Assembly (NCBI GenBank): GCA_902805845.1
Contig: CADCUI010000001.1
Location: 140,592 to 204,591 of the forward strand
Direction: 5' to 3'
Length of the DNA: 64,000 bases
Source: an uncultured Nocardioidaceae bacterium
Lineage (GTDB): Bacteria > Actinomycetota > Actinomycetes > Propionibacteriales > Nocardioidaceae
The position numbers were made by a program, and so were the translations under genes. The notes below the pieces were generated by a model. The model was not told the DNA's origin. It worked only from the letters and a program-made list of their open reading frames with translations, and made no database searches. Shown here piece by piece: positions 4,479 through 60,549 of the stretch. Positions within the stretch are counted from its first letter, which is position 1; every line of letters begins with the position of its first letter.

Positions 4479-4544
4479 CGCGATCCGCCCTCGATGTCCG
4501 GCCGATCCGCCCGCGATGTCCGGCCGACTCGCCCCTCGTGCAGG
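4479..4544 (+). repeat. Family A 22-nt repeat, 3 tandem units, forward orientation
   Basis: Units are cgcgatccgccctcgatgtccg, gccgatccgcccgcgatgtccg and gccgactcgcccctcgtgcagg. The array ends 27 nt before the VOC start codon. Confidence 0.85.
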
Positions 4545-4571
4545 TGCCGACTGTCGGAGCGGTGAACGACA

Positions 4572-5267
4572 ATGACCGGCATGGTGCTCGCGACGTACAA
4601 GGACCTCTGCATCGACGCCGTCGACCCGGAGCGGATGGGGCGCTTCTGGGCCGAGGCGCTCGAGCTGGACCTCGAGCTGCTCGACGACGGCGACGCCAAG
4701 CTGACGGGCCCGACGCCCCAGCACACCGTGTGGGTCAACGGCGTCCCGGAGCCGTTGACCGTCAAGCAGCGGGTCCACCTCGACGTCTGGGCCGACGCGT
4801 ACGACGACGTGGAGGCGCTGGGAGCCACCATGGTCGACGCGGAGAGCTTCACGTGGGCGGTGCTGCGTGATCCGGAGGGCGGCGAGCTCTGCGTCTTCCG
4901 CACCCGCCCGGAGGGACGCCCGGGGCTGATGGAGGTCGTCCTCGACACCCGCGACGTCGAGAGCGCGAAGGCGATCTCGGTCTGGTGGGCGGACGTGCTC
5001 GGAGGCAAAGCCATGGACGCCGTCGAGGACGGGTTCTCCTACGTCGAGCAGGTGCCGGAGGCGCCCTTCGAGAGCCTGGTCTTCGTGCCGGTCCCGGAGC
5101 CCAAGACGGTCAAGAACCGCATCCACATCGACGTGAGCACCCCCGACCTGGATGCGCTGCTGACCAGGGGCGCCTCGGTGGTGAGGCCGCAGGACGACGA
5201 GATCGGCTGGACCGTCATGGCCGACCCCGACGGCAACGAGTTCTGCGCCTTCGTGCCGGCCCGCTGA
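4572..5267 (+). CDS. VOC (glyoxalase/bleomycin-resistance/dioxygenase) family protein, two-domain
   Basis: 231-aa ORF with two similar halves (...RVHLDVW... and ...RIHIDVS...), typical of glyoxalase-like domain proteins. Confidence 0.75.
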   Translation: MTGMVLATYKDLCIDAVDPERMGRFWAEALELDLELLDDGDAKLTGPTPQHTVWVNGVPEPLTVKQRVHLDVWADAYDDVEALGATMVDAESFTWAVLRDPEGGELCVFRTRPEGRPGLMEVVLDTRDVESAKAISVWWADVLGGKAMDAVEDGFSYVEQVPEAPFESLVFVPVPEPKTVKNRIHIDVSTPDLDALLTRGASVVRPQDDEIGWTVMADPDGNEFCAFVPAR

Positions 5268-5277
5268 CACAGCCGAC

Positions 5278-8200
5278 GTGGCACTCCACCTGCATCGCGG
5301 ACCGCGCACCGACCTGCTGGCGGACGCTCTCGGCGACCTGCTGTCGACGCCGCTGGCGGACCCGTTCGCCGAGGAGGTCGTGGTCGTCCCCGCGAAGGGT
5401 GTCGAGCGCTGGCTGACCCAGCGGCTCTCGCACCGGCTGGGCGTCGGCCCCCGGGGCGGCGACGGCGTGTGTGCCGGGGTCCGGTTCCTCAACCCGCGGT
5501 CCCTCGTGGCGCTGCTCACCGGCACCCTCGACGACGACCCCTGGGACCCCGACCAGTTCGTGTGGCCGCTGCTGGAGACCATCGACGCCTCCCTCGACGA
5601 GCCGTGGTGCCGGCCCCTGGCTCACCACCTCGGGCACGACACGCCGGGCGAGGGCGGCGAGCTGCGCCGGGACCGGCGCTACTCGGTGGCCCGGCGGCTC
5701 GCCGGCCTGTTTGCGTCGTACGCCGCTCAGCGCCCGCAGCTGCTGGTCGACTGGCGGGAGGAGCGGGACACCGACGGCGCAGGGGCGCCACTTCCGCAGG
5801 ACCTTGCCTGGCAGCCTCCCCTGTGGAGGGGGCTGATCGAGCGGGTCGACGCACCTGCTCCCGATGTCCGGCACCGGGACACCCTGGCGGCGATCAGGGG
5901 CGGTGCCGAGCTCGCGCTGCCGGACCGGCTGTCCATGTTCGGGCACACCCGCATGTCGGTCACCGAGCTGGAGCTGCTTCGGGCCGTCGGGGAGGTGCGC
6001 GACGTGCACCTGTGGCTACCGCAGGCCTCGCCGGGCGGATGGAGCCGGCTGGCCGACGGGACCTCGACGGGGCCGGTCCGGCGAGCCGACGACGCCAGCG
6101 GCCGGCTGCTGTCCCACCGGCTCCTGGCGTCGCTGGGCCGGGACTCGAGGGAGCTGCAACGCTCACTGGCGCTCCTCGGCGAGCTGACCGACACCGAGGT
6201 CCCGGACCCCGCCGAGCCCAACGACACCCTGCTGGGCTGGCTCCAGCAGGACCTGCGTCTGGACGCGGTGCCGTCCCGGCGCCGACTGCGCCCCTCGGAC
6301 CGGTCGGTCCAGGTGCACGCCTGTCACGGCCCGGCCCGCCAGGTCGAGGTGCTGCGCGAGGTGCTGGTCGGCCTGCTGCAGGACGACCCGACGCTGGAGC
6401 CCCGCGACGTCCTGGTGATGTGCCCCGACATCGAGGCCTACGCACCCCTGTTCTCGGCGACCTTCGGCCTCGCCGACGTCGTGGGCTCACAGGGACATCC
6501 TGGCCACCAGCTGCGGGTGCGGCTGGCCGACCGGGGACTCGCGAGCACCAACGGCCTGATGGCGCTGGCCGGCTCACTGGTGCACCTCGCCGGCGGCCGG
6601 GCCACGGCGAGCGAGGTGCTCGACCTGGCTGCCAGCGCCCCGGTCAGGCACCGGTTCGCCTTCGACGACGAGGACCTGGCCGAGCTCACGAGCTGGGTCG
6701 AGAGGTCGGGCACCCGGTGGGGGCTCTCGGCCGGGCTACGCGCGCCGTACGGGCTGCAGGAGTTCGCGGAGAACACCTGGGAGGCCGGACTCCACCGGGT
6801 GCTGCTGGGGGTCGCGATGGCCGAGGGGGACGGCTTCCTGGGGGGACAGGTGCCGCTGGACGACATCGGGAGCTCGAGCATCGACCTGGCGGGTCGCCTC
6901 GCCGAGCTCGTCGACCGGCTGGAGTCAGCGGTGGTGGCCCTGCGGTCGGCGACGACGCCGGTGACCTGGATGGCGGCCCTGCGGGACGGGGTGGCCTCGC
7001 TCGGCTCCGTGAGCTCGTACGACGCATGGCAGTCGGCTCAGCTCGACCGGGAGATCGAGTCGGTGCTCCGGGCCGCAGCGGTGGGGCCGAGGGCCGGGCG
7101 GGGAGCCGGGCCGGGGGGCGCGGGGCGCACCGGCACCGTGCTCCGGCTGGCCGACGTCCGCCGGCTGCTCGAGCAGCGTCTGCAGCCGCGACCGACCCGG
7201 GCGAACTTCCGTACCGGCCATCTCACTGTCTGCACCATGGTCCCGATGCGGTCGGTGCCGCACCGCGTGGTGTGCCTGGTCGGCCTCGACGACGGGGTCT
7301 TCCCCCGCTCGACGGTGGCCGACGGCGACGACGCCCTGCTCCGCGACCCGGTCACCGGGGAGCGCGATGCCCGGGGCGAGGACCGGCAGCTGCTCCTCGA
7401 CGCGATCCTGGCCGCGAGGGAGACCCTCGTGATGGCCTACACCGGCGCGAACGTCACCACCAACCAGCCGGTGCCACCCGCGGTCCCCCTCGACGAGCTC
7501 CTGGACGCGGTCGAGGCCACCGCCCCCGGCGCCCGTGAGGCAGTGCTGCAACGTCAGCCGCTGCAGCCCTTCGACCCTCGCAACTTCCAGGTGGGCGAGG
7601 GACGGCCGCCCTTCAGCTTCGACCGGGCGGCGGCGGGCGCGGCGCTCGCGCTCCAGCAGGTACGGCGCCCGGTGCGGCCCTTCCTCGCCACGCCGCTCCC
7701 CCGCCGGCCGGAGGCAGACGTGACCCTGGCCGCCCTGCAGTCCTTCTTCAAGAGCCCGGTGCGCGGCTTCCTCCGACAAGGGCTGGACGTCGCGGTCGGC
7801 GAGGAGCACGCCGAGGGCAAGGACTCCATGCCGGTGTCGCTCGACCACCTCGAGGAGTGGGAGCTGGGGGACCGGGTCCTCCGACGGATCCTCGACGGGG
7901 CGGACCCGGAGGAGGTGCTGCAGGCGGAGCTCCTGCGCGGCGACCTGCCGCCCCGGAGCCTCGGCGAGCAGGCGCTGCGCGGGGTGTGCGCCAAGGTGCA
8001 GGTGGTCCGGGACGCCGCAGCAGCCGACCGTGAGCCGGCCGTGACGGCACTCGACGTCACCCTCGACCTCGGCGGCGGCCGCCGCCTCACCGGGGTGGTG
8101 CCGGACGTGCGCGGGCAGCGGATCGTGCGGGTCAACTACTCCAAGCTGTCCGCCAAGCACCGGCTCGCCTCGTGGATCGACCTCCTGGCCCTGTCCGTGG

Positions 8201-8643
8201 CGTTTCCGGACCAGTCGTGGACGGCGGCGACGTACGGCTGGTTCAAGCAGTGGGGCAGAGAGGGCTGCGCCTGGTCGGTGCTGGGCCCCGTCGGCGACGG
8301 TGCGGCGGACCACCTCCGCGACCTCGTCGACGTCTACGACCGCGGGCTGCGCGAGCCGCTCCCGCTGTTCGCCAAGACGTCGTCGGCGTGGGCCACCGCG
8401 CTGCACAAGGGCAAGAACGCCGAGGACTCCGCCGGGAGCGCCTGGCGCGACCGTGACACCTATCCGGGGGAGCAGTCGGCGCCCGAGCACGTGCGCGTCT
8501 TCGGGCGGGGTTGCGAGCTCGAGCGGCTCCTGGGCGTCCCTCGACCCGACGAGCAGTGGTCGGAGGAGCCCACGCGCCTGGGCCGCTACGCGCGCCACGT
8601 GTGGGAGCCGCTGCTCCGGCACGAGAAGGGGAGGAACCTGTGA
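5278..8643 (+). CDS. recC: Exodeoxyribonuclease V gamma subunit RecC
   Basis: 1121 aa. The N-terminus (ALHLHRGPRTDLLADAL) and overall length are typical of RecC. It lies directly upstream of recB-recD with a start/stop overlap. Confidence 0.9.
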   Translation: MALHLHRGPRTDLLADALGDLLSTPLADPFAEEVVVVPAKGVERWLTQRLSHRLGVGPRGGDGVCAGVRFLNPRSLVALLTGTLDDDPWDPDQFVWPLLETIDASLDEPWCRPLAHHLGHDTPGEGGELRRDRRYSVARRLAGLFASYAAQRPQLLVDWREERDTDGAGAPLPQDLAWQPPLWRGLIERVDAPAPDVRHRDTLAAIRGGAELALPDRLSMFGHTRMSVTELELLRAVGEVRDVHLWLPQASPGGWSRLADGTSTGPVRRADDASGRLLSHRLLASLGRDSRELQRSLALLGELTDTEVPDPAEPNDTLLGWLQQDLRLDAVPSRRRLRPSDRSVQVHACHGPARQVEVLREVLVGLLQDDPTLEPRDVLVMCPDIEAYAPLFSATFGLADVVGSQGHPGHQLRVRLADRGLASTNGLMALAGSLVHLAGGRATASEVLDLAASAPVRHRFAFDDEDLAELTSWVERSGTRWGLSAGLRAPYGLQEFAENTWEAGLHRVLLGVAMAEGDGFLGGQVPLDDIGSSSIDLAGRLAELVDRLESAVVALRSATTPVTWMAALRDGVASLGSVSSYDAWQSAQLDREIESVLRAAAVGPRAGRGAGPGGAGRTGTVLRLADVRRLLEQRLQPRPTRANFRTGHLTVCTMVPMRSVPHRVVCLVGLDDGVFPRSTVADGDDALLRDPVTGERDARGEDRQLLLDAILAARETLVMAYTGANVTTNQPVPPAVPLDELLDAVEATAPGAREAVLQRQPLQPFDPRNFQVGEGRPPFSFDRAAAGAALALQQVRRPVRPFLATPLPRRPEADVTLAALQSFFKSPVRGFLRQGLDVAVGEEHAEGKDSMPVSLDHLEEWELGDRVLRRILDGADPEEVLQAELLRGDLPPRSLGEQALRGVCAKVQVVRDAAAADREPAVTALDVTLDLGGGRRLTGVVPDVRGQRIVRVNYSKLSAKHRLASWIDLLALSVAFPDQSWTAATYGWFKQWGREGCAWSVLGPVGDGAADHLRDLVDVYDRGLREPLPLFAKTSSAWATALHKGKNAEDSAGSAWRDRDTYPGEQSAPEHVRVFGRGCELERLLGVPRPDEQWSEEPTRLGRYARHVWEPLLRHEKGRNL

Positions 8644-11600
8644 CCGACGCCGGTCGGCTCCACACGACTGCCGCCGCACCGAGGCTGTTCGACATCGACG
8701 ACCCCCTTCCGCGTCCGGGCTCCACCACCCTGCTCGAGGCGAGCGCCGGCACGGGGAAGACCTGGGCCATCGCGGCCCTCGTCGCCCGTTACGTGATCGA
8801 GGACGGGTTGCCGCTCGAGCGGCTGCTCGTGGTGACCTTCGGGCGTGCCGCCAGCCAGGAGCTGAGAAGCAGGGTCCGCGAGCGGCTCGTCGAGGCCGAC
8901 CGCCACCTCGAGGCGGCGGTGGCCGACCGTCCGCTCCCGACCGGTGACGACGAGCTGCTCGCCCGTCTCGTGGTGGGCGATCCGGCCGTTCTGGTCGTGC
9001 GCCGTGACCGTGCCCGGCGGGCGCTGGCCGACTTCGACGCCGCGACGATCGCCACGATCCACCAGTTCTGCCAGCTGGTGCTCAAGGGCCTGGGGGTCGC
9101 TGGTGACCACGACTCGGCCGCCGAGCTCGTGGAGGACCTCCAGGAGCTGCGCGACCAGGTGGTCGACGACCTCTTCGTCGCCTCGTTCGCCGGCCTCGAG
9201 GAGGCTCCTCCCCTGGACAGGAACACCGTCGCCGCCCTGGCCAGGGAGGCGGTCGTCGACCCTGCGGCCGCCCTTCGGCCGGACGCCACGGTCGAGGGGC
9301 TGGCGGGTCTGCGGGTCCGGCTGGCCGAACAGGTCCGCGAGCAGATGCAGACCCGCAAGCGTCGGCTCGGCATCCTCAGCTACGACGACCTGCTCTCGCG
9401 CCTCGCCGACGCGCTCGAGCACGAGGACTCGGCCGCCCGGCTGCGGATGCGGGCCCGGTGGGACGTCGTCCTCGTCGACGAGTTCCAGGACACCGACCCG
9501 GTGCAGTGGGAGGTCTTCGACCGCGCGTTCTCCGGTCACGCCGCGATGGTCCTGATCGGCGACCCGAAGCAGGCCATCTACGCCTTCCGCGGCGGCGACA
9601 TCACGACGTACGGGCGGGCCAAGCGGTCTGCCACCGCGGAAGCCACGCTGGGCGTGAACTACCGCAGTGACGCACCGTTGGTGGAGTCCGTGGTGACACT
9701 TCTCGGCGGCGCTCGGCTCGGCGAGGACATCGTGGCGCGGCCGGTGAGCGCGCACTGCCGCGGCCAGCGACTGGCCGGCGCTCCCAGCACCGCCCCGCTG
9801 CGGCTGCGGCTGGTCAACCGTTCCCAGTTCGGAAGTCCGAGACCGCCGGCCATCGGCCCGGCACGCGCCGCGGTGGCCGCCGACCTGGCCCAGGACGTCG
9901 CCGCGCTGCTCGCCTCCGGGGCCACCCACGGTGGCCGGGCGCTGCGGGCCGAGGACGTCGCCGTGCTGTGTGCGACCGCCGCCCAGTGCGACCTGGTGCG
10001 TGCCGCCCTGGGGGAGGTGGGGGTGCCTGCCGTGGTGCTGGGCTCGGCGAGCGTGTTCGGTTCGGCCGCGGCCGACGACTGGCTGACGGTGCTGGAGGCG
10101 ATGGAGCGGCCTCACCGCAGCGACCGGGTCCGGGCAGCGGCGCTCACCGCGTTCTTCGACCTGACGCCCGAACAGCTGGCGTCCGGTGGGGACCAGGTCA
10201 CCGAGTCCATGGCCGAGACGATGAGGGACTGGGCACAGCTGATGAGCCGGCGCGGTGTCGCCGCGGTCTTCGAGGCGGCGGCCTCCGGAGGCGGGATGAA
10301 CCGTCGGCTCCTGCTGTACCAGGGTGGCGAGCGGCTGGCGACGGACCTGCGGCACCTCGCCCAGCTGCTCCACGAGCTCGTGGCCCGCGAGGGGCTGGCG
10401 CTGCCCGGTCTGCTCACGTGGCTGCGTGCCCAGATCGCCGAGACCCGTCGGGAGGCCCCCGAGGACCGGGCCCGTCGGCTGGACTCCGACGCCTTGGCGG
10501 TGCAGATCCTCACCATCCACAAGAGCAAGGGGCTCCAGTACCCCGTCGTCTACCTTCCCTTCGCCTCCGACCACAAGCAGAAGCGTGAGCTGCTTCCCCG
10601 GTTCCACGACGACGACGGCAACCGGTGCCTCGACGTCGGCGGCTCGCCCGCCGACGAGCACACCGCTCGAGCCCAGGCCGAGCTCGCCGACGAGCGGCTC
10701 AGGCTTCTCTATGTCGCGATGACCCGAGCGCAGAGCCAGGTGGTCACCTGGTGGTTCGCCAGCAAGCAGAACGTCGAGGCGTCGAGCCTCCACCGGGTCG
10801 TCATGGGGCGCGGACCGGGCCAGGCCGAGGTGCCGCTGTCCGTCGACGCGGTCTCCGACGAGGATGCGCTGGCGCGGGCGCGCCAGTGGGAGGAGCAGGG
10901 GGCGGTGTCGGTGGAGCTGGTCCGGCCGCGGTCCTCCCTCGCGGAGCCGCCGGCCCGGTCGCCGGTGGACGTCGAGCCCCGGGCGTGGACCCGGTCGGTG
11001 GACGACACCTGGGGACGCACGTCGTACACCGGGCTCAGCGGCGCCGCGTCGGCTCACGAGGCGGCGGGGGTGCCGTTCGGAAGCGAGCCCGAGGCGCCGG
11101 TCAAGGAGGACGAACCTGAGATCGTCGTGGCCGACGCCGTGGCGGAGCAGGACGCGGTGCGCTCGCCGATGACCGACCTCCCGGTCGGGGCCACCTTCGG
11201 CTCCCTGGTGCACGCCGTCCTCGAGCACGCGGACCCCGACGCGCCCGGCCACGACGGCGACCTGCGTGCTGAGCTCCTCCAGCACATCGGCGACCAGCTG
11301 GTCCGGTGGCCCGTGGCGCTCGACAAGAACGAGCTCGCCGACGCGCTGGTGGCGGTGCTCGACTCATCGATGGGCCCGCTTGCCGGTGACCGCACTCTCC
11401 GCCAGGTCGGCGTGCGGGACAGGATGACCGAGCTCGACTTCGAGCTTCCGCTCGCGGGCGGTGACCGGGACGAGCATCCCTGGACCTCCGCGCGGCTGTC
11501 AGGGATCGCGCCGCTGCTGCGGGAGCACCTGCCTGCCGACGACCCGCTGCTCCCGTACGCCGACGTGCTCGAGGGGCCCGGGCACGCCGCCCAGGTGCTG

Positions 11601-12020
11601 CACGGCTACCTGGCCGGCTCCGTCGACGTGGTGCTGCGAGTCGACGGCCGCTACCTGGTCGTCGACTACAAGACGAACCACCTCGGTCCGCGCACCGAGC
11701 CGCCGACCGAGCTGACGTCCGCGCACTACGCCCCGTCACGGCTGGCGGCCGCGATGACCCACTCCAGCTATCCGTTGCAGGCGCTGCTGTACGCCGTGGT
11801 GCTGCACCGTTTCCTCCGCTGGCGGCTGCCCGGCTACGACCCCGAGCAGCACCTCGGCGGTGTGCTGTACCTCTACCTCCGGGGGATGTGCGGGCCCGCG
11901 ACGCCGATGACCGACGGACAGCCCTGCGGGGTCTTCGCCTGGCGTCCGCCGGTGATTCTCGTCGAGGCGGTCTCGGACCTCCTCGACGGTGTGGACGAGC
12001 GGGCAGAGGGCACGGCATGA
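8640..12020 (+). CDS. recB: Exodeoxyribonuclease V beta subunit RecB (UvrD-like helicase plus PD-(D/E)xK nuclease)
   Basis: GTG at 8640 overlaps the recC stop (GTGA). Translation has Walker A EASAGTGKTW, VDEFQDTD, and the C-terminal nuclease motif VDVVLRVDGRYLVVDYKTN. The 8511 start in the ORF track is an upstream extension. Confidence 0.92.
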   Translation: MTDAGRLHTTAAAPRLFDIDDPLPRPGSTTLLEASAGTGKTWAIAALVARYVIEDGLPLERLLVVTFGRAASQELRSRVRERLVEADRHLEAAVADRPLPTGDDELLARLVVGDPAVLVVRRDRARRALADFDAATIATIHQFCQLVLKGLGVAGDHDSAAELVEDLQELRDQVVDDLFVASFAGLEEAPPLDRNTVAALAREAVVDPAAALRPDATVEGLAGLRVRLAEQVREQMQTRKRRLGILSYDDLLSRLADALEHEDSAARLRMRARWDVVLVDEFQDTDPVQWEVFDRAFSGHAAMVLIGDPKQAIYAFRGGDITTYGRAKRSATAEATLGVNYRSDAPLVESVVTLLGGARLGEDIVARPVSAHCRGQRLAGAPSTAPLRLRLVNRSQFGSPRPPAIGPARAAVAADLAQDVAALLASGATHGGRALRAEDVAVLCATAAQCDLVRAALGEVGVPAVVLGSASVFGSAAADDWLTVLEAMERPHRSDRVRAAALTAFFDLTPEQLASGGDQVTESMAETMRDWAQLMSRRGVAAVFEAAASGGGMNRRLLLYQGGERLATDLRHLAQLLHELVAREGLALPGLLTWLRAQIAETRREAPEDRARRLDSDALAVQILTIHKSKGLQYPVVYLPFASDHKQKRELLPRFHDDDGNRCLDVGGSPADEHTARAQAELADERLRLLYVAMTRAQSQVVTWWFASKQNVEASSLHRVVMGRGPGQAEVPLSVDAVSDEDALARARQWEEQGAVSVELVRPRSSLAEPPARSPVDVEPRAWTRSVDDTWGRTSYTGLSGAASAHEAAGVPFGSEPEAPVKEDEPEIVVADAVAEQDAVRSPMTDLPVGATFGSLVHAVLEHADPDAPGHDGDLRAELLQHIGDQLVRWPVALDKNELADALVAVLDSSMGPLAGDRTLRQVGVRDRMTELDFELPLAGGDRDEHPWTSARLSGIAPLLREHLPADDPLLPYADVLEGPGHAAQVLHGYLAGSVDVVLRVDGRYLVVDYKTNHLGPRTEPPTELTSAHYAPSRLAAAMTHSSYPLQALLYAVVLHRFLRWRLPGYDPEQHLGGVLYLYLRGMCGPATPMTDGQPCGVFAWRPPVILVEAVSDLLDGVDERAEGTA

Positions 12021-13870
12021 CCGCGGCGACGGCCTTCGTCCCCCTCGATGACCACGACCGGCGTCGTGCACGCCGGGCCCGGGGGCTCCTCGCCGAGATC
12101 AACGACGCCGGGTTCCTGGAGGCGGCCGACGTCCACGTCGCCCAACGCCTCGCTCGGCTGGGTGGCGAGACGTCCCCGGAGGTGCTGCTGGCGGTGGCGG
12201 TGGCCGTGCGGGCGGTCCGGGCGGGGTCGGTGTGCGTCGACCTCCGGTCGGTCGGTGACCTGGCTCCCGGGGTGCGCTGGCCGGACCCCGACTCGTGGGT
12301 CTCGTCGGTGCGGGGAAGCGCCCTGGTCGCCGACGGTGTGCTGTGCCTGGAGGGGACGGACCTCTACCTCAGGCGCTACTGGGAGGAGGAGCGCCAGGTC
12401 GTCGAGGACCTGCGCCGACGTGACGAGAGCGAACCCGTCGCCCTCGACCCCGGCATGGTGGCCGCTGCTCTTGCGGCGTACTTTCCCGACGACGACTCCA
12501 CCGACCAGCGGCTGGCGGCGGCGCTCTCCTGCCGCCGGTGGACCAGCGTCATCACCGGAGGTCCCGGCACGGGCAAGACGACGACGATCGCGCGGCTGCT
12601 GGGGGTGCTGCTGACGGTCGCGGGTGATCAGCCGCTCCGGGTGGCGCTCGCCGCGCCGACCGGCAAGGCGGCGGCCAGGATGGGGCAGGCGCTGCGGGAG
12701 GCCACCGACGTGCCGGGCTTCCCCGGGCGGGACGGGGCGGCCGACGGCGCGGTCGACTGGGCGGGCGACGGGGCGGCCGACGGGGCGGCCGACGCGGCTG
12801 CTGCCCGTCGGCGTGACCAGATCCGCGGCTACCAGGCGTCGACGATCCACCGGCTGCTCGGCTGGCGGCCGGACAGCTCGACCCGGTTCCGCCATGACAG
12901 GTCGAACCCGCTCCCCTACGACGTCGTCGTGGTCGACGAGACCTCGATGGTCTCGCTCACGCTGATGGCCCGGCTGCTGGAGTCGATGCGGCCGCAGGCG
13001 CGACTCGTGCTGGTGGGTGACGCCGATCAGCTTGCGTCCGTGGAGGCGGGCGCGGTGCTCGGTGACGTCGTCCGTGGCTGGAGCTCCACCGGCCCCGTGC
13101 GGCGCTTGGACAGGACCCGTCGGTTCGGCATGAACATCGCCGAGCTTGCCCAGGCGATCAGGGCAGGCGATGACGACGAGGTGGTCAGGGTCCTGCGTGA
13201 GGGCCGCGTCCCCGAGCAGCCGGACGACGGCAGGGTCGCCTGGGTGGAGGCCGACTCGCTCGACCCTCTCCTCGGGGACCAGGCGTTGCGGCTGTGGGAG
13301 GCCGGCCGAGGCGGCGAGGCAGAACGGGCCTGGCAGGTCTTCGAGGGCCACCGGTTGCTCTGTGCGCACCGGGACGGGCCGTACGGCGTCGGGACCTGGA
13401 ACCGGCGCGTCGAGCGGCTGCTGATGGCCGCCGTGGGACAGGACTGGCTCGAGGAGTGGTACCCGGGCCGCCCGTTCATCGTCAACGCGAACGATCGGGG
13501 GCTCGACCTCTGGAACGGCGACACCGGTGTCGCCTGCCTCGCCGCGCCCTCCGCTTCGAGGCCCGGTGCACGGACCGTCGGGGTGATCGGCAAGGGGGGC
13601 GGCGGGACGAGGTCGCTTCCGACGACGCGGCTGTCCGACGTGTCGACCGCTCACGCGATGACCGTGCACCGCAGCCAGGGCAGCCAGTTCGCGGACGTGA
13701 CGGTGCTGCTCCCCGAGCCGGACAGCCGCATCCTCACGCGCGAGCTGTTCTACACCGCGGTGACGCGCGCCCGGGACACGGTGAGAGTGGTCGGCTCGGA
13801 GGAGGCCGTACGTGCCGCGGTGACCCGACGGGCCCAGCGGGCGACCGGCCTGGCTCGCCGGCTGGGCTGA
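12017..13870 (+). CDS. recD: Exodeoxyribonuclease V alpha subunit RecD
   Basis: ATG at 12017 overlaps the recB stop (ATGA). Motifs: ITGGPGTGKTTT, VVVVDETSMV and AMTVHRSQGSQF. Confidence 0.92.
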   Translation: MTAATAFVPLDDHDRRRARRARGLLAEINDAGFLEAADVHVAQRLARLGGETSPEVLLAVAVAVRAVRAGSVCVDLRSVGDLAPGVRWPDPDSWVSSVRGSALVADGVLCLEGTDLYLRRYWEEERQVVEDLRRRDESEPVALDPGMVAAALAAYFPDDDSTDQRLAAALSCRRWTSVITGGPGTGKTTTIARLLGVLLTVAGDQPLRVALAAPTGKAAARMGQALREATDVPGFPGRDGAADGAVDWAGDGAADGAADAAAARRRDQIRGYQASTIHRLLGWRPDSSTRFRHDRSNPLPYDVVVVDETSMVSLTLMARLLESMRPQARLVLVGDADQLASVEAGAVLGDVVRGWSSTGPVRRLDRTRRFGMNIAELAQAIRAGDDDEVVRVLREGRVPEQPDDGRVAWVEADSLDPLLGDQALRLWEAGRGGEAERAWQVFEGHRLLCAHRDGPYGVGTWNRRVERLLMAAVGQDWLEEWYPGRPFIVNANDRGLDLWNGDTGVACLAAPSASRPGARTVGVIGKGGGGTRSLPTTRLSDVSTAHAMTVHRSQGSQFADVTVLLPEPDSRILTRELFYTAVTRARDTVRVVGSEEAVRAAVTRRAQRATGLARRLG

Positions 13871-18404: not shown

Positions 18405-19085
18405 ATGCCGACCGAGCCGCCGCCGTCGCCGTGGCTCTTCCCGGACTTCACCCGGCCCGACCAGGACGCCGCCTGCACCGACGACCTGGTCGGGCGCGGC
18501 GCCGACCTGGCTCCGGGGACCCTCCTGTCGGCCTACCGGTCCGGTCTCTTCCCGATGCCGGACGGTGGCTCCGGCATGAGCTGGTGGTCACCTCGGGACC
18601 GGGGCGTGCTGCCCCTCGACGCGATGTGCGTGTCGCGCTCGCTCGCGAAGTCGTGCCGCCGGATGGAGCTGCGGGTCGACACGTCCTTCGAGGACGTGGT
18701 CGCCGCCTGCGCCGACCCGGCACGCGACGGGGGCTGGATCGACGCCGACATCGCCGCGGCGTACACCCGTCTCCACCGGCTGGGCTGGGCGCACTCGGTG
18801 GAGACGTGGCAGCACGGGGAGCTCGTGGGAGGGCTGTACGGGGTCGCCATCGGCGGGCTGTTCGCCGGCGAGTCGATGTTCCACCGGGTCACCGACGCCT
18901 CGAAGGTGGCGCTGGTGGGGCTGGTCGACCTGCTCTCCGACGAGTACGCCGGGGCCCGGCTGCTCGACGTTCAGTGGCGCACCCCGCACCTCGCCTCGCT
19001 GGGGGTGGTGGAGGTGCCGAGAGCCGGCTACGTCCGAGCCCTCCACGCCGCCCTCCAGGTGCCGTTGCCGACCCCCTGGCGCTGA
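18405..19085 (+). CDS. aat: Leucyl/phenylalanyl-tRNA--protein transferase
   Basis: LLSAYRSGLFPM, WWSPRDRGVLPLD and GGLYGVAIGGLFAGESMFH are typical of Aat. I chose ATG 18405 within the longer 17925 ORF. Confidence 0.85.
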   Translation: MPTEPPPSPWLFPDFTRPDQDAACTDDLVGRGADLAPGTLLSAYRSGLFPMPDGGSGMSWWSPRDRGVLPLDAMCVSRSLAKSCRRMELRVDTSFEDVVAACADPARDGGWIDADIAAAYTRLHRLGWAHSVETWQHGELVGGLYGVAIGGLFAGESMFHRVTDASKVALVGLVDLLSDEYAGARLLDVQWRTPHLASLGVVEVPRAGYVRALHAALQVPLPTPWR

Positions 19086-19156
19086 CCCGCCCCTCAGGTC
19101 TGGCCGAGCCGCCCAACATGTTGGGCGGCTCGGCCAGACATGAGGGGCGGCTCGAC
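19083..19156. repeat. Family A palindromic element (2 forward plus 2 reverse units); probable bidirectional terminator
   Basis: CCGCCCCTCAGGTCTGGCCGAGCCGCCCAAC-AT-GTTGGGCGGCTCGGCCAGACATGAGGGGCGG forms 31-nt arms with one mismatch. It fills the whole gap between the convergent aat and fpg-like stops. Confidence 0.85.
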
Positions 19157-23308: not shown

Positions 23309-23405
23309 CGCCCACGCCCATGCCAGGCCACCGGCCACCGGCCACGGCCCGGGGTGATGGGCAGTGGTCATCGACCGGATGGAGTGACCGGTAGGTTGAC
23401 CTGCC

Positions 23406-36895: not shown

Positions 36896-36981
36896 CGAGT
36901 CGGCGCTTGTGCACGCCGGAACCCCGTCGAGTCGGCGCTTGTGCACGCCGGAACCCCGTCGAGTCGGCGCTTGTGCACGCC
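36896..36981 (+). repeat. Family B repeat, 2.7 tandem units (32-nt period)
   Basis: cgagtcggcgcttgtgcacgccggaaccccgt occurs twice, then cgagtcggcgcttgtgcacgcc. It lies between the pirin stop and the start of the small membrane gene. Confidence 0.9.
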
Positions 36982-41299: not shown

Positions 41300-41387
41300 G
41301 CCGACCCGCCCCTCATGTCTGGCCGACCCGCCCCTCATGTCTGGCCGACCCGCCCGTCATGTCCGGTCGACCCGCCTTTCGTGCAGA
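41300..41387 (+). repeat. Family A 22-nt repeat, 4 tandem units, forward
   Basis: gccgacccgcccctcatgtctg x2, then gccgacccgcccgtcatgtccg and gtcgacccgcctttcgtgcaga. The array ends 10 nt before the CoA-transferase ATG. Confidence 0.9.
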
Positions 41388-41397: not shown

Positions 41398-42555
41398 ATG
41401 GCCTACGCGCTGGACCAGGGGACGGGACCACTCAGGGGCATCAGGGTCGTCGAGATCGCCGGCATCGGTCCTGGCCCACACGCGGCGACGATCCTGGCCG
41501 ACCTGGGGGCCGACGTCGTCCGGATCGAGAAGCCGGGGGGTGCGGCGAGTGCCGGCCCACGCAGGACCGACCTGCTCACCCGGGGCCGACCGAGCGTCGT
41601 CCTCGACCTCAAGCACCCGGCCGCCCTCGCGGCCGTGCTCGAACTGGTGGCCGAGGCGGACGTCCTCATCGAAGGCATGCGCCCCGGTGTCGCCGAGCGT
41701 CTCGGCTTCGGGCCCGAGGACTGCTTCGCGCGAAACGGCAGGCTGGTCTACGGCCGGATGACGGGGTGGGGCCAGGACGGCCCTCTCGCGCAGGCCGCCG
41801 GCCATGACCTGAACTACATCGCCGTCAACGGGTTGCTCCACGGGCTCGGTCAGGACCCCAGCCGCCCACACTTCCCGAGCAACCTCCTTGGCGACTTCGG
41901 AGGTGGTTCGACGTACCTCGTGATCGGCGTGCTCGCCGCCGTCCTCGAGGCGCGCACAAGCGGGACGGGGCAGGTGGTGGACGCCGCGATCGTCGACGGC
42001 ACTGCTCACCTGAACCTGATGTGGGCCTCCCTGCTCGCCGGTGGCCTCGGCCAGGAACGGCGGGCGTCCAACATGCTCGACGGAGGCATCCCGCACTACG
42101 ACCTCTACGAGACCGCCGACGGCGAGCACATGGCCGTCGGGGCGCTGGAGCCGCGCTTCTACGCCGACCTGCTGGCACGCCTCGGCATCGCAGGGGTGGC
42201 GCCCGACCGCCACGACGCCGACCGGCTGGGCGAGCTCCGCCAGCTCCTCACCGACACGTTCCTGACCAGGACGCAGGCGGAGTGGACTGCGATCTTCGCC
42301 GGCAGCGACGCCTGCTGCACCCCGGTCCTGCCGCTGACCGAGGCACGCGAGCATCCCCACCTCGAGGCGCGCGGGGTGTACGTCGACCGCGGTGGTGTCG
42401 TGCAGCCGGCCCCTGCTCCCCGGTTCTCCCGGACCGGGGCAACCCTGTCCACCGGGCCGTCCACGCCCGGGGCGGACACCCGCGCGGTGCTCGAGGCGTG
42501 GGGCGTCGCCGACGTCGACGTACTGCTCAACTCAGGTGCCGCCGTCCAAGCCTGA
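41398..42555 (+). CDS. CaiB/BaiF family III CoA-transferase (alpha-methylacyl-CoA racemase-like)
   Basis: GIRVVEIAGIGPGPHAATILADLGADVVRIE and GWGQDGP...AGHDLNY are typical of family III CoA-transferases and racemases. Confidence 0.88.
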   Translation: MAYALDQGTGPLRGIRVVEIAGIGPGPHAATILADLGADVVRIEKPGGAASAGPRRTDLLTRGRPSVVLDLKHPAALAAVLELVAEADVLIEGMRPGVAERLGFGPEDCFARNGRLVYGRMTGWGQDGPLAQAAGHDLNYIAVNGLLHGLGQDPSRPHFPSNLLGDFGGGSTYLVIGVLAAVLEARTSGTGQVVDAAIVDGTAHLNLMWASLLAGGLGQERRASNMLDGGIPHYDLYETADGEHMAVGALEPRFYADLLARLGIAGVAPDRHDADRLGELRQLLTDTFLTRTQAEWTAIFAGSDACCTPVLPLTEAREHPHLEARGVYVDRGGVVQPAPAPRFSRTGATLSTGPSTPGADTRAVLEAWGVADVDVLLNSGAAVQA

Positions 42556-42556
42556 C

Positions 42557-42643
42557 CAGCATCCCGGGCGGGTCGGGCAGACATGAGGGGCGGGTCGAGC
42601 AGACATGAGGGGCGGGTCGGGCAGACATGAAGGGCGGGTCGGC
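42557..42643 (-). repeat. Family A 22-nt repeat, 4 tandem units, reverse
   Basis: cagcatcccgggcgggtcggg, cagacatgaggggcgggtcgag, cagacatgaggggcgggtcggg and cagacatgaagggcgggtcggc. The array starts 2 nt after the CoA-transferase stop. Confidence 0.9.
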
Positions 42644-42767
42644 ACCGTGGCCAGAGGGGCTGAGGAGGGCCCGGCCATGGCCACCGTGACAGCCGCGGTG
42701 CCAGAGTTGGATACTCACCGGTAACCGCGCCTGTCGGGTCGCGGACGCCGCACCGAAAGTGGGGAGC

Positions 42768-49677: not shown

Positions 49678-49787
49678 GCCGACCCGCCCTCGATGTCTGG
49701 TCGACCCGCCCACGATGTCTGGCCGAGCCGCCCACGATGTCTGGCCGAGCCGCCCACGATGTCTGGCCGAGCCGCCCACGATGTCGG
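49678..49787 (+). repeat. Family A 22-nt repeat, 5 tandem units, forward (CGATG subtype)
   Basis: gccgacccgccctcgatgtctg, gtcgacccgcccacgatgtctg, gccgagccgcccacgatgtctg x2 and gccgagccgcccacgatgtcgg. Confidence 0.92.
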
Positions 49788-49864: not shown

Positions 49865-50245
49865 GTGAGCAACCGCGTCGTGCACTTCGAGATCCCGTAC
49901 GACGACCCGGACCGCGCGTCGAAGTTCTACGCCGACACGTTCGGCTGGGAGCTCACGTCGATGCCCGAGATGGGCTACGTGCTGGCGTCGACCGGTCCCA
50001 GCGGCGAGCAGGGACCGACCGAGCCCGGCTTCATCAACGGGGGGATGCTCCAGCGGGGGAGTCACTGGACGGCACCCAACGTCGTCATCGACGTCGCCAA
50101 CATCGAGGACGCGCTCACGGCAGTGGGGGAGCACGGCGGCAGCACCGTGGTCGAGCGGGAGCCCGTCGGGGACATGGGTTTCAGCGCCTACTTCAAGGAC
50201 AGCGAGGGCAACCTGATCGGCCTCTGGGAGACCGCCAGCGGCTGA
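49865..50245 (+). CDS. VOC (glyoxalase) family protein
   Basis: VVHFEIPYDDPDRASKFYADTFGW and FKDSEGNLIGLWE are typical of single-domain VOC proteins. A GGAGG RBS lies before the GTG. Confidence 0.8.
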   Translation: MSNRVVHFEIPYDDPDRASKFYADTFGWELTSMPEMGYVLASTGPSGEQGPTEPGFINGGMLQRGSHWTAPNVVIDVANIEDALTAVGEHGGSTVVEREPVGDMGFSAYFKDSEGNLIGLWETASG

Positions 50246-50248: not shown

Positions 50249-50314
50249 CCGGTACGCCGGGCGGGTCGGCCAGACATCGTGGGCGGGTCGGCCGGACATC
50301 GCGGGCGGGTCGGC
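50249..50314 (-). repeat. Family A 22-nt repeat, 3 tandem units, reverse (CGATG subtype)
   Basis: ccggtacgccgggcgggtcggc, cagacatcgtgggcgggtcggc and cggacatcgcgggcgggtcggc. It lies between the VOC stop and the convergent kinase stop. Confidence 0.88.
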
Positions 50315-52239: not shown

Positions 52240-52995
52240 GTGACGAACGCGCTCGTGCAGTACGCCGTGTCCGACGGTGTCGCGACCCTGATCCTCGACA
52301 GCCCGCACAACCGCAACGCGCTGAGCCGTCGGCTGGTGTCCGAGCTGTTCGAGGGATTCGACCGGGCGGAGGCCGACGACGACGTGCGAGTCGTCGTGCT
52401 CACGGCCTCCGGGTCGGTGTTCTGCTCCGGCGCCGACCTCGCCGAGGCATCCGACGACGGCATGGAGGACGGCGCCCGTCGCATCGTCGACCTGCAGCGG
52501 CGGATCGTCGGCTCGGACAAGCCTGTCGTCGCTCGGGTGCAGGGTGCCGTCCGTGCCGGCGGCACCGGCGTCGTCGCCGCAGCGGACATCGCCATCTGCG
52601 CGGACGACGTGACGTTCGCACTCACGGAGGTCCGGCTGGGACTGGCGGCGGCGGTGATCTCGTTGACGGTGCTTCCGCGGCTGACCAGCAGGGCGGCCGC
52701 GCGCACCTTCCTCACCGGCGAGACGTTCGACGCCGGGGCAGCGGCTGCGATGGGCCTGGTGACGACAGCGGTCCCGCAGGAGCAGCTCGACGACGAGGTC
52801 GGCCGCGTGGTCGACGACCTGCGCAAGGGCCATCCTCAGGGGCTGCGGGAGAGCAAGCGGCTGGTGAACGCCGAGCTCCTGGCCCGCATCGACGAGTCGG
52901 GGGCGGACGTCGCGGACCTGTCGGCGCGGCTCTTCGGCTCCGAGGACGCCCGCGAGGCGATGGCAGCGTTCCTGGCCCGCCGCCAGGAACGCTGA
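52240..52995 (+). CDS. Enoyl-CoA hydratase/isomerase family protein
   Basis: VFCSGADL and VQGAVRAGGTGV crotonase motifs. 251 aa. Confidence 0.88.
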   Translation: MTNALVQYAVSDGVATLILDSPHNRNALSRRLVSELFEGFDRAEADDDVRVVVLTASGSVFCSGADLAEASDDGMEDGARRIVDLQRRIVGSDKPVVARVQGAVRAGGTGVVAAADIAICADDVTFALTEVRLGLAAAVISLTVLPRLTSRAAARTFLTGETFDAGAAAAMGLVTTAVPQEQLDDEVGRVVDDLRKGHPQGLRESKRLVNAELLARIDESGADVADLSARLFGSEDAREAMAAFLARRQER

Positions 52996-53803: not shown

Positions 53804-53835
53804 GCCGGTCGATGCTAGTCGGGTAGCGTCGGGGC

Positions 53836-58616: not shown

Positions 58617-58618
58617 CC

Positions 58619-59197
58619 ATGGGCGACCGCCCGAGCGTCGTGGTCGTCGACCACCAGGACTCCTACACCTTCAACCTGGTGCACCTGGTCGCCGCGGTGA
58701 CCGGCGAGCTCCCGGTGGTCGTCGACCACCACGAGGTGACGTCGACCGACCTCCTCGGGTTCAGCCACGTCGTCCTGTCGCCCGGACCCGGCAACCCCGA
58801 CGAGCCCGGCGACTTCGGGGTCGGCCGGGACGTGCTGCGCCACGCCGCCGTGCCGGTGCTCGGGGTGTGCCTGGGCATGCAGGGCCTCGTGGCCGGCTAC
58901 GGCGGCCGGGTGGCCGCTGTCAACCCGGCGCACGGTGACGTCGCCTCGGTGAGGCACGCAGGGACCGGGCTCTTCGAGGGCATCCCCTCGCCGTTCCAGG
59001 CGGTCCGCTACCACTCGCTGGCCGCTGTCAGCGTGCCGGCGGTCCTGGAGACCACCGCGTGGAGCGAGGACGGGACGGTGATGGCGGTCGCCCACCGGAC
59101 GCTGCCGCTGGTGGGCGTGCAGTTCCACCCGGAGTCGGTGCTGACCACCCATGGTGCGGTGATCGTCGAGAACTTCCTGTCCGGCCGGCTGCGGTGA
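58619..59197 (+). CDS. pabA: Glutamine amidotransferase component II (PabA/TrpG type)
   Basis: VVDHQDSYTFNL, the GVCLGMQ catalytic Cys, and VQFHPESVLT. Confidence 0.88.
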   Translation: MGDRPSVVVVDHQDSYTFNLVHLVAAVTGELPVVVDHHEVTSTDLLGFSHVVLSPGPGNPDEPGDFGVGRDVLRHAAVPVLGVCLGMQGLVAGYGGRVAAVNPAHGDVASVRHAGTGLFEGIPSPFQAVRYHSLAAVSVPAVLETTAWSEDGTVMAVAHRTLPLVGVQFHPESVLTTHGAVIVENFLSGRLR

Positions 59198-60549
59198 CCG
59201 GGCCGCCGGAGGCCTTCCAGGCGGCCGCGGGCTCCTCGGACAGGCTGGTGTGGCTGGACGGTCACGTGGCCGAGCACCCGTGGTCCGGCCGGGGCTCGCT
59301 GCTCGGTGTCCTCGGGGCCGACGACGTGTCGCTCACCTTCGACGCGGGTCGGCGACAGGTGCTCCGCCACCGTGGAGAGAACTCCCAGCCGGTCGGGGAC
59401 GACATCTTCGACGTCCTGGAGGCCGAGGTGGCTCGGGACGCCGGCGACCCGTCGGTGGTGTGGGTGGGCTACCTCGGTTACGCCTGCCGGACCGACCTGC
59501 CCGGCAGACCGGCCGACCCGGGTTCCGGCGTACCCGACGCGGTGTGGCTGCGGCTGGTCGACCCCCTCACCCTGCCGACCCGCCCTTCATGTCTGGCCGA
59601 GCCGCCCACGATGCTGGGCGATCGCAGCATCGTGGGCGGCTCGAACGAACATGAAGGGCGGGTCGACGAGGGGTACGCCGCGGCGTACGCCGAGGTGCAA
59701 CGGCAGCTGCGGCTCGGGAACTCCTACGAGGTCAACCTCACCTACCGGGAGAGGCTCGCCTCCGACGTCGACCCGGTGACGGCGTACCTTCGCTTGCGCG
59801 AGATCAACCCGGCGCCCTACTCCGGCTACCTGCGGCACCGCGGTGTCCACCTGCTCAGCTCGAGCCCCGAGCGGTTCGCGGCCGTGGACGGGGAGCGGGT
59901 GCTCGAGGCCCGGCCGATCAAGGGCACGACGCGGCGTGGCGCGACCCCGGCGGAGGACGCCGAGGAGGCGCGACGGCTGGCCGCCGACCCGCGGTTCCGC
60001 GCCGAGAACCTCATGGTCGTCGACCTGCTGCGCAATGACCTGTCGATGGTGTGCGACCCCGGCACCGTCACGGTGCCGGCGCTGATGGCGGTGGAGTCCT
60101 ACCCCTCGGTGCACCAGCTCGTCTCGACGATCCGCGGCCGGCTGCACGACGGCGTCTCGACGGTGCGGGCGGTGCGGGCGCTCTTCCCGGCCGGGTCGAT
60201 GACCGGGGCGCCGAAACGCCGGACGATGGAGATCATCGACGCCGTCGAGGCCACCCCGAGGGGCGCGTACGCCGGGGCCTTCGGCTGGCTCTCCGGTGAC
60301 GGCCGGGCCGACCTCAGCGTCGTCATCCGGACCCTCGTCGCGACGCGGAGCGGCGTGTCGACCAGCATCCTGGGCGGCTCGACCGGACATGAGGGGCGGG
60401 TCGGCGGGTGGACCTACGAGCTCGGCACCGGCGGGGGGATCACCGTGCGCTCCACCCTGCACGAGGAGTACGACGAGACGCGCTGGAAGGCCGCCCGGCT
60501 CCGGGCGGCCCTCCACGTGGATCCTGGGTCGGACCTCTCGACGCCCTGA
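59194..60549 (+). CDS. pabB: Aminodeoxychorismate synthase component I-like chorismate-binding enzyme carrying two in-frame Family A repeat segments
   Basis: GTGA overlap with the pabA stop. Motifs: SYEVNLT, SSSPERF, RPIKGT, AENLMVVDLLRND, FPAGSMTGAPK, PRGAYAGAFGW and GGGIT. Repeat-derived peptides lie at about residues 127-158 and 390-404. Confidence 0.85.
   Translation: MTGPPEAFQAAAGSSDRLVWLDGHVAEHPWSGRGSLLGVLGADDVSLTFDAGRRQVLRHRGENSQPVGDDIFDVLEAEVARDAGDPSVVWVGYLGYACRTDLPGRPADPGSGVPDAVWLRLVDPLTLPTRPSCLAEPPTMLGDRSIVGGSNEHEGRVDEGYAAAYAEVQRQLRLGNSYEVNLTYRERLASDVDPVTAYLRLREINPAPYSGYLRHRGVHLLSSSPERFAAVDGERVLEARPIKGTTRRGATPAEDAEEARRLAADPRFRAENLMVVDLLRNDLSMVCDPGTVTVPALMAVESYPSVHQLVSTIRGRLHDGVSTVRAVRALFPAGSMTGAPKRRTMEIIDAVEATPRGAYAGAFGWLSGDGRADLSVVIRTLVATRSGVSTSILGGSTGHEGRVGGWTYELGTGGGITVRSTLHEEYDETRWKAARLRAALHVDPGSDLSTP
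59574..59667. repeat. Family A palindromic element (2 forward plus 2 reverse units around GCGATCG) inside the pabB CDS
   Basis: gccgacccgcccttcatgtctg and gccgagccgcccacgatgctgg, then gcgatcg, then cagcatcgtgggcggctcgaac and gaacatgaagggcgggtcgac. The ~40-nt arms have about 4 mismatches. Confidence 0.9.
60363..60405 (-). repeat. Family A half-element (2 reverse units) inside the pabB CDS
   Basis: cagcatcctgggcggctcgac and cggacatgaggggcgggtcggc. This is the same inner-unit variant (CAGCATCC) as at 42557. Confidence 0.85.

Follow-up and report, generated by a model that had tools for sequence, protein, structure and literature searches.

A 22-nt modular foldback repeat family in Nocardioidaceae and its likeness to REP/BIME elements

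What kind of repeat fills the spacers between genes, and twice runs through a gene, in a 64-kb stretch of DNA from an uncultured soil Nocardioidaceae bacterium (contig CADCUI010000001.1)? The original prediction, made from the letters of this stretch (here called the window; G+C about 72–74%), described about 27 copies of a 22-nt unit, Family A, at eight loci. We read and phased the repeats over the whole window and found 29 units of the 22-nt module, with all eight loci in their predicted places. By the catalogues and literature searched, Family A is previously undescribed. We see about an even chance that it is a modular interspersed foldback repeat family of Nocardioidaceae resembling repetitive extragenic palindromic sequences and bacterial interspersed mosaic elements (REP/BIME), of the type of REP doublets forming hairpins (REPIN), and differently built. 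In the features listed below, F is a C-rich left arm and R is a G-rich right arm, an inverted copy of F.

4479..4544, plus strand: F3 arm in the divergent spacer upstream of a glyoxalase-like gene (4572-5267), identical in a second strain.
19081..19156, no strand assigned: F2+R2 palindrome between convergent genes, RNA fold -77.7 kcal/mol.
41300..41387, plus strand: F4 arm, which fills the spacer from an ABC ATPase stop (41290) to the CoA-transferase start (41398).
41398..42555, plus strand: CoA-transferase III gene, flanked by arms F4 and R4.
42556..42643, minus strand: R4 arm, beginning 0-2 nt past the CoA-transferase stop.
49678..49787, plus strand: F5 arm upstream of a glyoxalase gene, ending at TTGACG.
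49865..50245, plus strand: glyoxalase/bleomycin-resistance-like gene, flanked by arms F5 and R3.
50249..50314, minus strand: R3 arm between the convergent glyoxalase and histidine-kinase genes.
59194..60549, plus strand: PabB/TrpE-family (chorismate-binding) open reading frame (ORF), holding two repeat loci in frame.
59574..59667, no strand assigned: F2+R2 palindrome, PabB site 1, residues about 127-158, translated ..PTRPSCLAEPPTMLGDRSIVGGSNEHEGRV..
60362..60405, minus strand: R2 arm, PabB site 2, residues about 390-404, translated ..TSILGGSTGHEGRVG..

The consensus of the 29 units was GCCGACCCGCCCnnnATGTCTG, and the window unit can be written as GCCGAsCCGCCCnnnATGTCTG. Positions 3-5 (CGA), 7-12 (CCGCCC) and 16-18 (ATG) were 90-100% conserved, position 6 was C, G or T, and the triplet at positions 13-15 was hypervariable (34-55% conservation). 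The layout is therefore one of 12 constrained positions, CGA-n-CCGCCC-nnn-ATG, with a hypervariable triplet and a semi-conserved tail. Searches of the window with the earlier consensus at ≤3 mismatches gave 12 matches against a chance expectation of 0.01, and the exact core CGASCCGCCC gave 26 matches against 3.7 expected, 24 of them within arrays. The core motif was thus confined to arrays; the two solo cores in 64 kb, fewer than the 3.7 expected, were both coding coincidences. The sites 25110-25131 and 38117-38138 were considered as solo units and rejected; they are 'ADPP' motifs within coding sequence, belonging to an ABC ATPase and to a cation-efflux protein. The unit opens with 12 nt (GCCGACCCGCCC) that read as Ala-Asp-Pro-Pro codons, and these occur also in the ABC-ATPase segment ..ALAADPPVMLMDEP.. 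and in the cation-efflux protein; this likeness is a coincidence or, conceivably, a hint at the origin of the module.

Inside the arms, the period was exactly 22 nt with zero spacer, and Tandem Repeats Finder returned period-22 arrays at 4481, 41300, 42566, 49678, and 50258. The predicted exact period without spacers held within arms and failed at the palindrome centres, which were the only departures: the inner two units of the 19081 palindrome share a 12-nt overlap at 19103-19134, and the 59574 palindrome has ~6-8 nt at its centre (about 59618-59625). Forward-only, reverse-only, and palindromic (F-then-R) loci were all recovered, as were the distinct inner-end unit variants, ..CGTGCAGR in F and ..ATGCTGG in R arms. 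Chance, an assembly artefact, or a CRISPR-like array has a negligible probability as the source of this pattern, which shares with them only a superficial look of short direct repeats. The mismatch search (expectation 0.01) argues against chance, and the presence of the family in independent assemblies, including that of a cultured isolate, argues against an artefact. CRISPR arrays carry unique spacers between their repeats, whereas the units of Family A abut; the arrays are not CRISPR because their units lack spacers.

To follow the family beyond the window, we searched other genomes. A strict two-unit pattern gave 0 matches in 185,579 species genomes and matched two short JGI contigs only. 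This emptiness arose because the unit sequence differs between genomes; a core-only pattern then gave at least 45 loci in other Nocardioidaceae metagenome-assembled genomes (MAGs) and genomes. The unit architecture therefore recurs elsewhere, and the family is not the local oddity that the original prediction had allowed for. Among the matches listed, >30 loci were in one near-complete MAG (MFD01275.bin.1.42, hereafter MFD01275), others were in GB_HAYS_MAG_00061, Marmoricola MAGs, and one Nocardioidaceae MAG, and ~5 looked like chance (Dehalococcoidia, two Streptomyces, Actinophytocola, and Sphingomonas). The array carriers comprised a short-read metagenome contig (k137_), independent MAG contigs of up to 3.4 Mb, JGI contigs, and a cultured isolate; the best named homologues were from 'uncultured Nocardioidaceae bacterium', Marmoricola sp. 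MAGs, and Nocardioides spp. At all real loci the architecture was alike and the unit sequence was particular to each genome, which we call its dialect: GTCGAGCCGCCCCTCrTGACCG in MFD01275, GTCGAGCCGTCACTCGTGCCGG in contig_4136, CCGATCCGCCCCACATGGCCGG in GB_HAYS, and a degenerate GTCGAGrsGTCAC... form in L051. An extra two-unit R arm (..CCTGCATCCGGGGCGGGTCGGGCAGACATCGAGGGCAGGTGGGC..) was seen in L057 at ~3690-3740, where glutamate-synthase-like and GATase genes converge ~1.7 kb to the left of the first window position, indicating that array density extends beyond the window.

The catalogues offered no name for the family. There was no match in Rfam at the gathering threshold (window and four loci), none by plasmid blastn, and 0 matches to a loose pattern in viral contigs, and no relevant paper was found on such repeats, on REP, on REPIN with REP-associated tyrosine transposases (RAYT), on miniature inverted-repeat transposable elements (MITE), or on in-frame palindromic elements in Actinobacteria or Nocardioides. 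The initial impression that this is not a named element was upheld within these sources.

The arrangement of arms was examined in the window and in the fetched loci of the core-only matches listed. Arrays were of the types FR (31), F only (26), and R only (15), with no RF (two-sided p about 1e-9), and the FR doublet was the commonest arrangement (31 of 74 arrays). Neighbouring arrays <2 kb apart had F before R in 13/13 cases, across up to 1.2 kb; the window pairs are 41300/42556, 49678/50249, and 59574/60362. Arms were head-to-tail arrays of 2-12 equal-length modules, and the palindrome axis shifted, lying inside CATG, after a full unit, or across a spacer of ≤~28 nt. In MFD01275, the outermost unit starts GCCGAGCC, internal units start GGTCGAGCC, and a C-rich leader of ~16 nt precedes the outermost unit. 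The array flanks were inverted (C-rich left, G-rich right), not direct, and the F and R arms are inverted copies of each other, i.e. terminal inverted repeats as in a MITE.

Folding as RNA distinguished two-armed from single-armed copies. The 19081 palindrome folded at -77.7 kcal/mol (z -9.8) and the 59574 palindrome at -90.3 kcal/mol (z -13), whereas single arms were no better folded than shuffled sequences (z 0.18 for 41300 F4, 1.27, and -1.06). The F arms contained 42-47% C and 25-31% G and were unstructured. Canonical terminator-like sites at 41-51 kb did not exceed the chance level. A G-quadruplex in the R arms was considered and rejected, as the G-runs are lost in other dialects.

Gene-context counts came from a crude gene finder based on G+C at third codon positions (GC3) and are approximate because it missed genes. 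In the window and fetched loci, arrays typically began 5-20 nt past a TGA stop and filled the spacer to the next gene; copies lay in dead space among transcription units, that is, right after stops, right before promoters, and between convergent genes. The first unit of the 19081 palindrome contains the TGA that closes the Leu/Phe-tRNA protein transferase gene (gene end 19085), and an Fpg-like gene on the minus strand ends beside this palindrome at 19162. The F5 arm end exactly abuts a -35-like TTGACG at 49788, a motif kept in relatives with and without arrays, and the R4 arm lies upstream of a promoter-like site (42686-42715) of a thiolase gene. Single arms had their outer, C-rich-first end toward a gene 3' end in 16 cases and toward a 5' end in 6 (p 0.026).

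F..R pairs bracketed small, accessory-type genes (VOC/glyoxalase twice, GNAT, a DUF3253-like ORF, and a zinc-ribbon ORF), and also the CoA-transferase gene and the PabB catalytic core. That the bracketed genes were the cargo of mobile cassettes was at first suggestive; the idea was rejected, since relatives have the glyoxalase and CoA-transferase genes as resident orthologues whether or not arrays are present. The glyoxalase shows 59% amino acid identity to its array-free MFD01275 orthologue, and the CoA-transferase gene is syntenic in L054 and L055. In L049 (2368-3519, MFD01275), gene calling joined the glyoxalase orthologue and enoyl-CoA hydratase into a single 383-aa protein; the window has the hydratase as a gene of its own (52240-52995), and an R array and the histidine-kinase gene lie between glyoxalase and hydratase. 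P0122/L053 was considered as a closer relative and rejected for its duplicated or misassembled CoA-transferase and its other context. There, a 645-aa 'CoA-transferase' (10001-11938) consists of two near-identical gene copies joined by a poly-T/F stretch near the contig end, probably an assembly artefact or a tandem duplication unrelated to the repeats.

Two of the eight loci lie inside a gene of the folate pathway, a point that the original prediction overlooked. ORF 59194-60549 encodes a chorismate-binding PabB/TrpE-family protein (Pfam PF00425, E 2.9e-78), and loci 59574 and 60362 are both translated through in its frame. The same protein was also called on an independent metagenome contig (P0001). 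In an AlphaFold model of PabB (18 orthologues, predicted template modelling score 0.81), the only long internal low-confidence coils were residues 132-154 (site 1) and 389-403 (site 2), with a predicted local distance difference test score (pLDDT) of <50; these are the repeat-encoded peptides, and the remainder of the model was confident. Alignment of the 18 orthologues placed both sites in length-variable loops. Repeat-derived peptides were present at these loops in most of the ~50 closest PabB orthologues and absent from Nocardioides proper; pabB of the cultured Nocardioides caldifontis carries 1F+2R units. In the model, the repeat copies occupy two permissive surface loops that are predicted to be disordered.

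Firm in-ORF cases are limited to this one gene and its two sites, and most copies are intergenic. Other arrays in fetched loci that appeared to lie inside ORFs were not firm, being mostly N- or C-terminal ORF run-ons. The ATG of the module and its stop-free frames produce ORF starts inside arrays (MTGRAAP.. prefixes) or run-through extensions, for example at L037 474-495, L038 1029, L042 2590, and window position 41359. Rickettsia palindromic elements (RPE) are palindromic repeats that lie in frame in protein genes, are translated, and are tolerated in surface-exposed segments (PMC10969869). The PabB copies are likewise in frame, translated, and in tolerant protein regions; RPE differ in being single elements of about 100-150 bp rather than arrays of 22-bp modules. 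The resemblance to REP/BIME and Rickettsia elements that had been proposed was borne out, and the RPE parallel is stronger than first stated because two loci are translated in frame in PabB.

Comparison with the second strain (contig k137_65099), which is 99.5-99.6% identical over the compared parts of ~1-60223, revealed a single difference in the arrays, the addition of precisely one 22-nt unit at 50291; the remaining indels of this strain fall in tandem repeats of other kinds. The R arm at 50249 held 3 units in the window, 4 in L001, 4 in L059, and 5 in L058. In closer relatives (glyoxalase 88% amino acid identity), the order Rieske, F5, promoter, glyoxalase, R, and kinase was retained. Gain and loss of whole modules in arms between strains fits slipped-strand mispairing. 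When the F5 arms of the window and L058 were aligned unit for unit, the 12 core positions were identical in 60/60 comparisons and the remaining 10 positions in 35/50 (70%), the latter being equal to the identity of the flanking non-coding DNA (64-72%). Under neutrality, such invariance of the core has p about 5e-10. The core is strongly constrained, and the other unit positions drift at the neutral rate.

Selection on host cis-elements could produce a constrained core with drift elsewhere, and this is an explanation that we rate as unlikely. F arms would serve as Rho entry sites or as insulators that keep transcripts out of a region, and F+R copies as bidirectional terminators or 3' stabilisers, or the modules would be iterated sites of a nucleoid or regulatory protein, the 22-bp period (~two helical turns) placing the sites on one DNA face. 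Arrays located exactly past stops and before promoters, outer ends turned toward gene 3' ends (16 vs 6), C-rich (42-47% C), unstructured F arms, canonical intrinsic terminators not enriched at 41-51 kb, and the long-kept PabB and glyoxalase sites agree with this explanation. However, orthologous spacers in relatives lack arrays, R-only arms after co-directional genes (42556) would give G-rich RNA, copies in coding regions can hardly be regulatory, and the unit number is free to vary between strains. Cis-elements would also be expected in the order R..X..F at least as often as F..X..R, and the count was 0/13.

The distribution of filled and empty sites was compared among relatives. At the orthologous F5 site, L058, L059, and L054 carried an array, whereas the site was empty in L049 and L060, from which both glyoxalase arms were missing. 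The orthologous spacer of the R4 arm had no array in L054 and L055, and PabB site 2 was empty in L049 and in the P0011/P0020 clade. Filled versus empty sites, as the original prediction envisaged for a proliferating element, thus occur among relatives; several array sites are ancient and orthologous across genera, a state which, if it held for all copies, would by its account have undermined the case. PabB site 1 is a two-armed hairpin at equal position and frame in the window, L049, L050, L051, and L052, with 2F+2R in the first three and other unit counts in L051 and L052. Its core reads CCGCCC in the window and L049 and CCGTCA on both arms in L050, a compensating change. Each copy matches the dialect of the other arrays of its own genome, those of L050 having CCGTCA, and own-genome dialects appear at a second orthologous site, the F arm that precedes the glyoxalase gene. 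As read from these alignments, orthologous copies in own-genome dialects are a case of concerted evolution. In L054, positions 9933-10001 (the spacer between the ABC and CoA-transferase genes, the F4 site of the window) hold a C-rich/G-rich hairpin-like relic with two copies of TCGAGGGGCGGGCGG. This relic resembles the CCGCCC dialect, not the contig_4136 genome's own CCGTCA dialect, and may be an old copy that escaped homogenisation.

The variable triplet was common to adjacent units in 39% and to mirrored units in 33% of comparisons, against 14% for units of different loci, which points to local duplication or conversion. On the strength of such in-place change, transposition could be dispensed with altogether: micro/minisatellite-type repeats would have arisen where they stand and been homogenised by slippage and ectopic gene conversion among hundreds of arrays. 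We regard this as quite improbable. The greater likeness of adjacent and mirrored units is in its favour, as are copy-number steps of 22 nt, paralleled by 7-nt and 30-nt indels in further tandem repeats of the window, dialect shifts at orthologous sites of constant length, and searches that found no en-bloc unit orders in common, no transposase, and no target-site duplication. Independent origin, however, leaves one module at dozens of loci, the terminal variant, and the F-before-R polarity unexplained. The filled/empty differences are discrete blocks, and neutral conversion by itself would not be expected to keep 12 positions invariant next to a triplet that is hypervariable.

We compared Family A with known repeat systems. 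REP, BIME, and REPIN are, like the family, short, GC-rich, abundant, and mostly extragenic, located between convergent or co-directional genes; their inverted pairs form hairpins in single-stranded DNA or RNA, singlets occur alongside doublets, sequence classes are genome-specific, and most copies lack an adjoining transposase. REP units are imperfect palindromes of 20-40 nt with a conserved 5' GT[AG]G tetranucleotide adjoining the hairpin, whereas the family consensus has no GTAG-type 5' tetranucleotide. The family unit also differs in not being palindromic itself, in being C-rich and asymmetric, with unstructured single arms, and in forming arms of 2-12-module arrays. A cognate single-copy RAYT gene with the repeats on its flanks goes with REP and REPIN; no RAYT was found in the window or in ~400 kb of fetched array-rich loci, and the host phylum is Actinomycetota, for which no REPIN-RAYT report was found. 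The unusual traits of Family A are its strict 22-bp modularity, its absolute arm polarity across genes, and the replacement of dialects at orthologous coding sites.

Mycobacterial interspersed repetitive units and other variable-number tandem repeats (MIRU/VNTR) are actinobacterial head-to-tail repeats at dispersed intergenic loci of operons, which abut stops or starts and vary in unit number between strains. The family shares their dispersed direct repeats and strain-to-strain unit-number variation; MIRU differ in units of about 40-100 bp, direct only and without the F-then-R grammar, against 22 nt with inverted arms. Pneumococcal BOX elements are modular, boxA-(boxB)n-boxC, with a variable number of internal modules. 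In BOX and Neisseria Correia elements, inverted ends form RNA hairpins and affect neighbouring gene ends (in part from PMC10969869). The modular build, variable internal module number, and hairpin-forming inverted ends recall the family, which consists of one 22-mer throughout, whereas BOX and Correia have distinct end modules or terminal inverted repeats, and Correia a TA target duplication. For MITEs, near-identical full-length copies and a related autonomous insertion sequence are expected, and neither was found for the family in the window and fetched loci. Foldback (FB) elements of Drosophila have long inverted arms of tandem short sub-repeats in variable number, with little central DNA in some copies, and their arm pairs can bracket unrelated DNA; they are eukaryotic, of kilobase scale, and some have their own coding region; no homology is implied. 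Plasmid and partition iterons share the ~20-bp period and head-to-tail order but lie at one locus beside a rep or par gene, whereas the family occupies eight loci in 64 kb with unrelated neighbours.

DNA uptake sequences and uptake signal sequences (DUS/USS) are genome-specific variants of a conserved core, with inverted pairs as terminators and copies in tolerant coding segments. If the core were such a signal, as in Neisseria and Haemophilus, it would have been enriched by biased uptake and recombination. The genome-specific dialects, inverted pairs at gene ends, copies in permissive coding loops, and lack of a mobile gene in the DNA searched are in keeping with this. Uptake signals are, however, scattered single motifs located largely in genes, not arrays of ≥2 units, and the family core was not found outside arrays, singletons not being over-represented (2 solo cores vs 3.7 expected). 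This largely refutes an uptake signal, which we consider very improbable; to our knowledge, natural competence is not known for Nocardioidaceae.

Several observations weigh against a REP/BIME-like family that spreads. Among 56 arms of MFD01275, no pair had >2 consecutive identical units in common, so that there is no visible sign of whole elements having been copied and pasted recently. Inspection of the array flanks revealed no target-site duplication. No transposase, integrase, or Y1_Tnp domain was found in the ~45 window ORFs by Pfam, as the original prediction had stated of transposase and RAYT-like genes, and no mobilising gene was present in the gene calls of the fetched loci. All-versus-all blastp of 635 ORFs from ~400 kb of array-rich DNA gave no multi-copy gene, only ordinary paralogues; the window does encode RecBCD at 5278-13870. 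The F..gene..R pairs surround resident genes, a pattern that a simple insertion model leaves unexplained, and a terminator role leaves the single R arms downstream of co-directional genes (42556) unexplained. Single-arm arrays were barely more decayed than two-armed arrays (18.6 vs 19.2 of 22), in contrast to REP singlets, which are more decayed than REPINs (PMC3116915). REP and REPIN elements do persist for long at some sites (PMC3116915, PMC3337134). The predicted mobile or proliferating nature of the element is only putative and recent transposition is not evident, there being no target-site duplication, no associated gene, and at most two consecutive identical units between loci. What is seen is that genera differ in the presence or absence of copies, that strains differ in copy number, and that the unit changes in concert throughout a genome.

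For a REP/BIME-like family, these findings suggest the following course. Elements would be born as two-armed units with defined outer ends, as the polarity rule, the terminal variant, the two-unit minimum, and the block-wise filled/empty differences indicate. A protein encoded elsewhere may have spread them in trans, and the module core would be the site that it recognises; the 12 frozen positions beside neutral drift, together with the dialects, are the grounds for proposing a trans-acting factor that recognises the core. Today they would change chiefly where they stand, through slippage and gene conversion. REP/BIME and REPIN elements behave in this way (PMC3116915, PMC3337134). Two-armed copies may also, as a by-product, serve as putative 3'-end hairpins or terminators acting in both directions.

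A second repeat family, with the 22-nt unit CGAGTCGGCGCnnnTGCACGCC, was observed in the window at 28835-28942, 32187-32240, 36896-36981, and 37093-37114 (9 good matches vs 0.29 expected). It usually has a spacer of 8-10 nt after the unit (period 30-32) and has the same skeleton as Family A, CGAG-N6-N3-RTG-N6. Its copies lie after stops and between convergent genes, with F-then-R order at 28835-28942, and it looks like a co-resident sister family of Family A.

More specifically, the modules of Family A may be iterated recognition sites of a dedicated, co-evolving trans-acting protein, such as a domesticated RAYT-like transposase, a nucleoid factor, or a termination factor. We offer this only tentatively, as a possibility. 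If true, the system would be an actinobacterial counterpart of REPIN-RAYT with a wholly different module architecture. The specificity of the protein would set the dialect (CCGCCC, CCGTCA, TCGGCG ...), protein-mediated pairing of F and R arms would explain F before R even across genes, and the sister family (CGAG-N6-N3-RTG) would have its own paralogous partner.

Other repeats accompany Family A. MFD01275 has a separate hairpin element of ~90-110 nt, GGTTCCCCAAGGGATGTCGGC ... CTCCCCACGGGTCAC ... CCATGGGGAGT ... GCCGACATCCCTTGGGGAACC, which is found either by itself or, in half, joined to the inner end of a 22-nt array, at no fewer than 9 loci (e.g. L023 ~940-1040, L031 ~2450-2560, L044 6583-6690, and L022 3100-3200); it matched nothing in Rfam and is absent from the window. 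In the window, a G-rich tandem repeat of 13-14 nt (~7 copies, CCAGCGAGGGCGG-like) at 60550-60652 lies directly past the PabB stop, between the convergent PabB and HtrA-like genes, and contains GGGCGG as in the R-arm core, with another period. Short tandem repeats were also seen at 12731-12798, 23326-23349, and 32290-32372 (periods 12, 7, and 15 nt), the 15-nt repeat lying near the C-terminus of a Tle1-like phospholipase ORF. Between the two 99.6%-identical strains, such repeats differed in steps of whole units, with 7 nt gained or lost at 23326 and 30 nt at 32296.

REP-type repeats are textbook in Proteobacteria and essentially undescribed in high-GC Actinobacteria. Family A is a natural experiment in concerted evolution, as dialects differ between genomes at its orthologous sites, among them two loops of an enzyme in an essential pathway, and its 12 frozen positions amid neutral drift point to a recognition partner that can be searched for. 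Hairpins of -90 kcal/mol and the peptides they encode are tolerable inside a conserved enzyme. In practice, the arrays are VNTR markers that distinguish strains of uncultured Nocardioidaceae; they also mislead gene callers (N-terminal extensions and false starts at the module ATG) and probably break short-read assemblies. If two-armed copies terminate transcription, they would help to explain how transcription ends in genomes lacking canonical intrinsic terminators.

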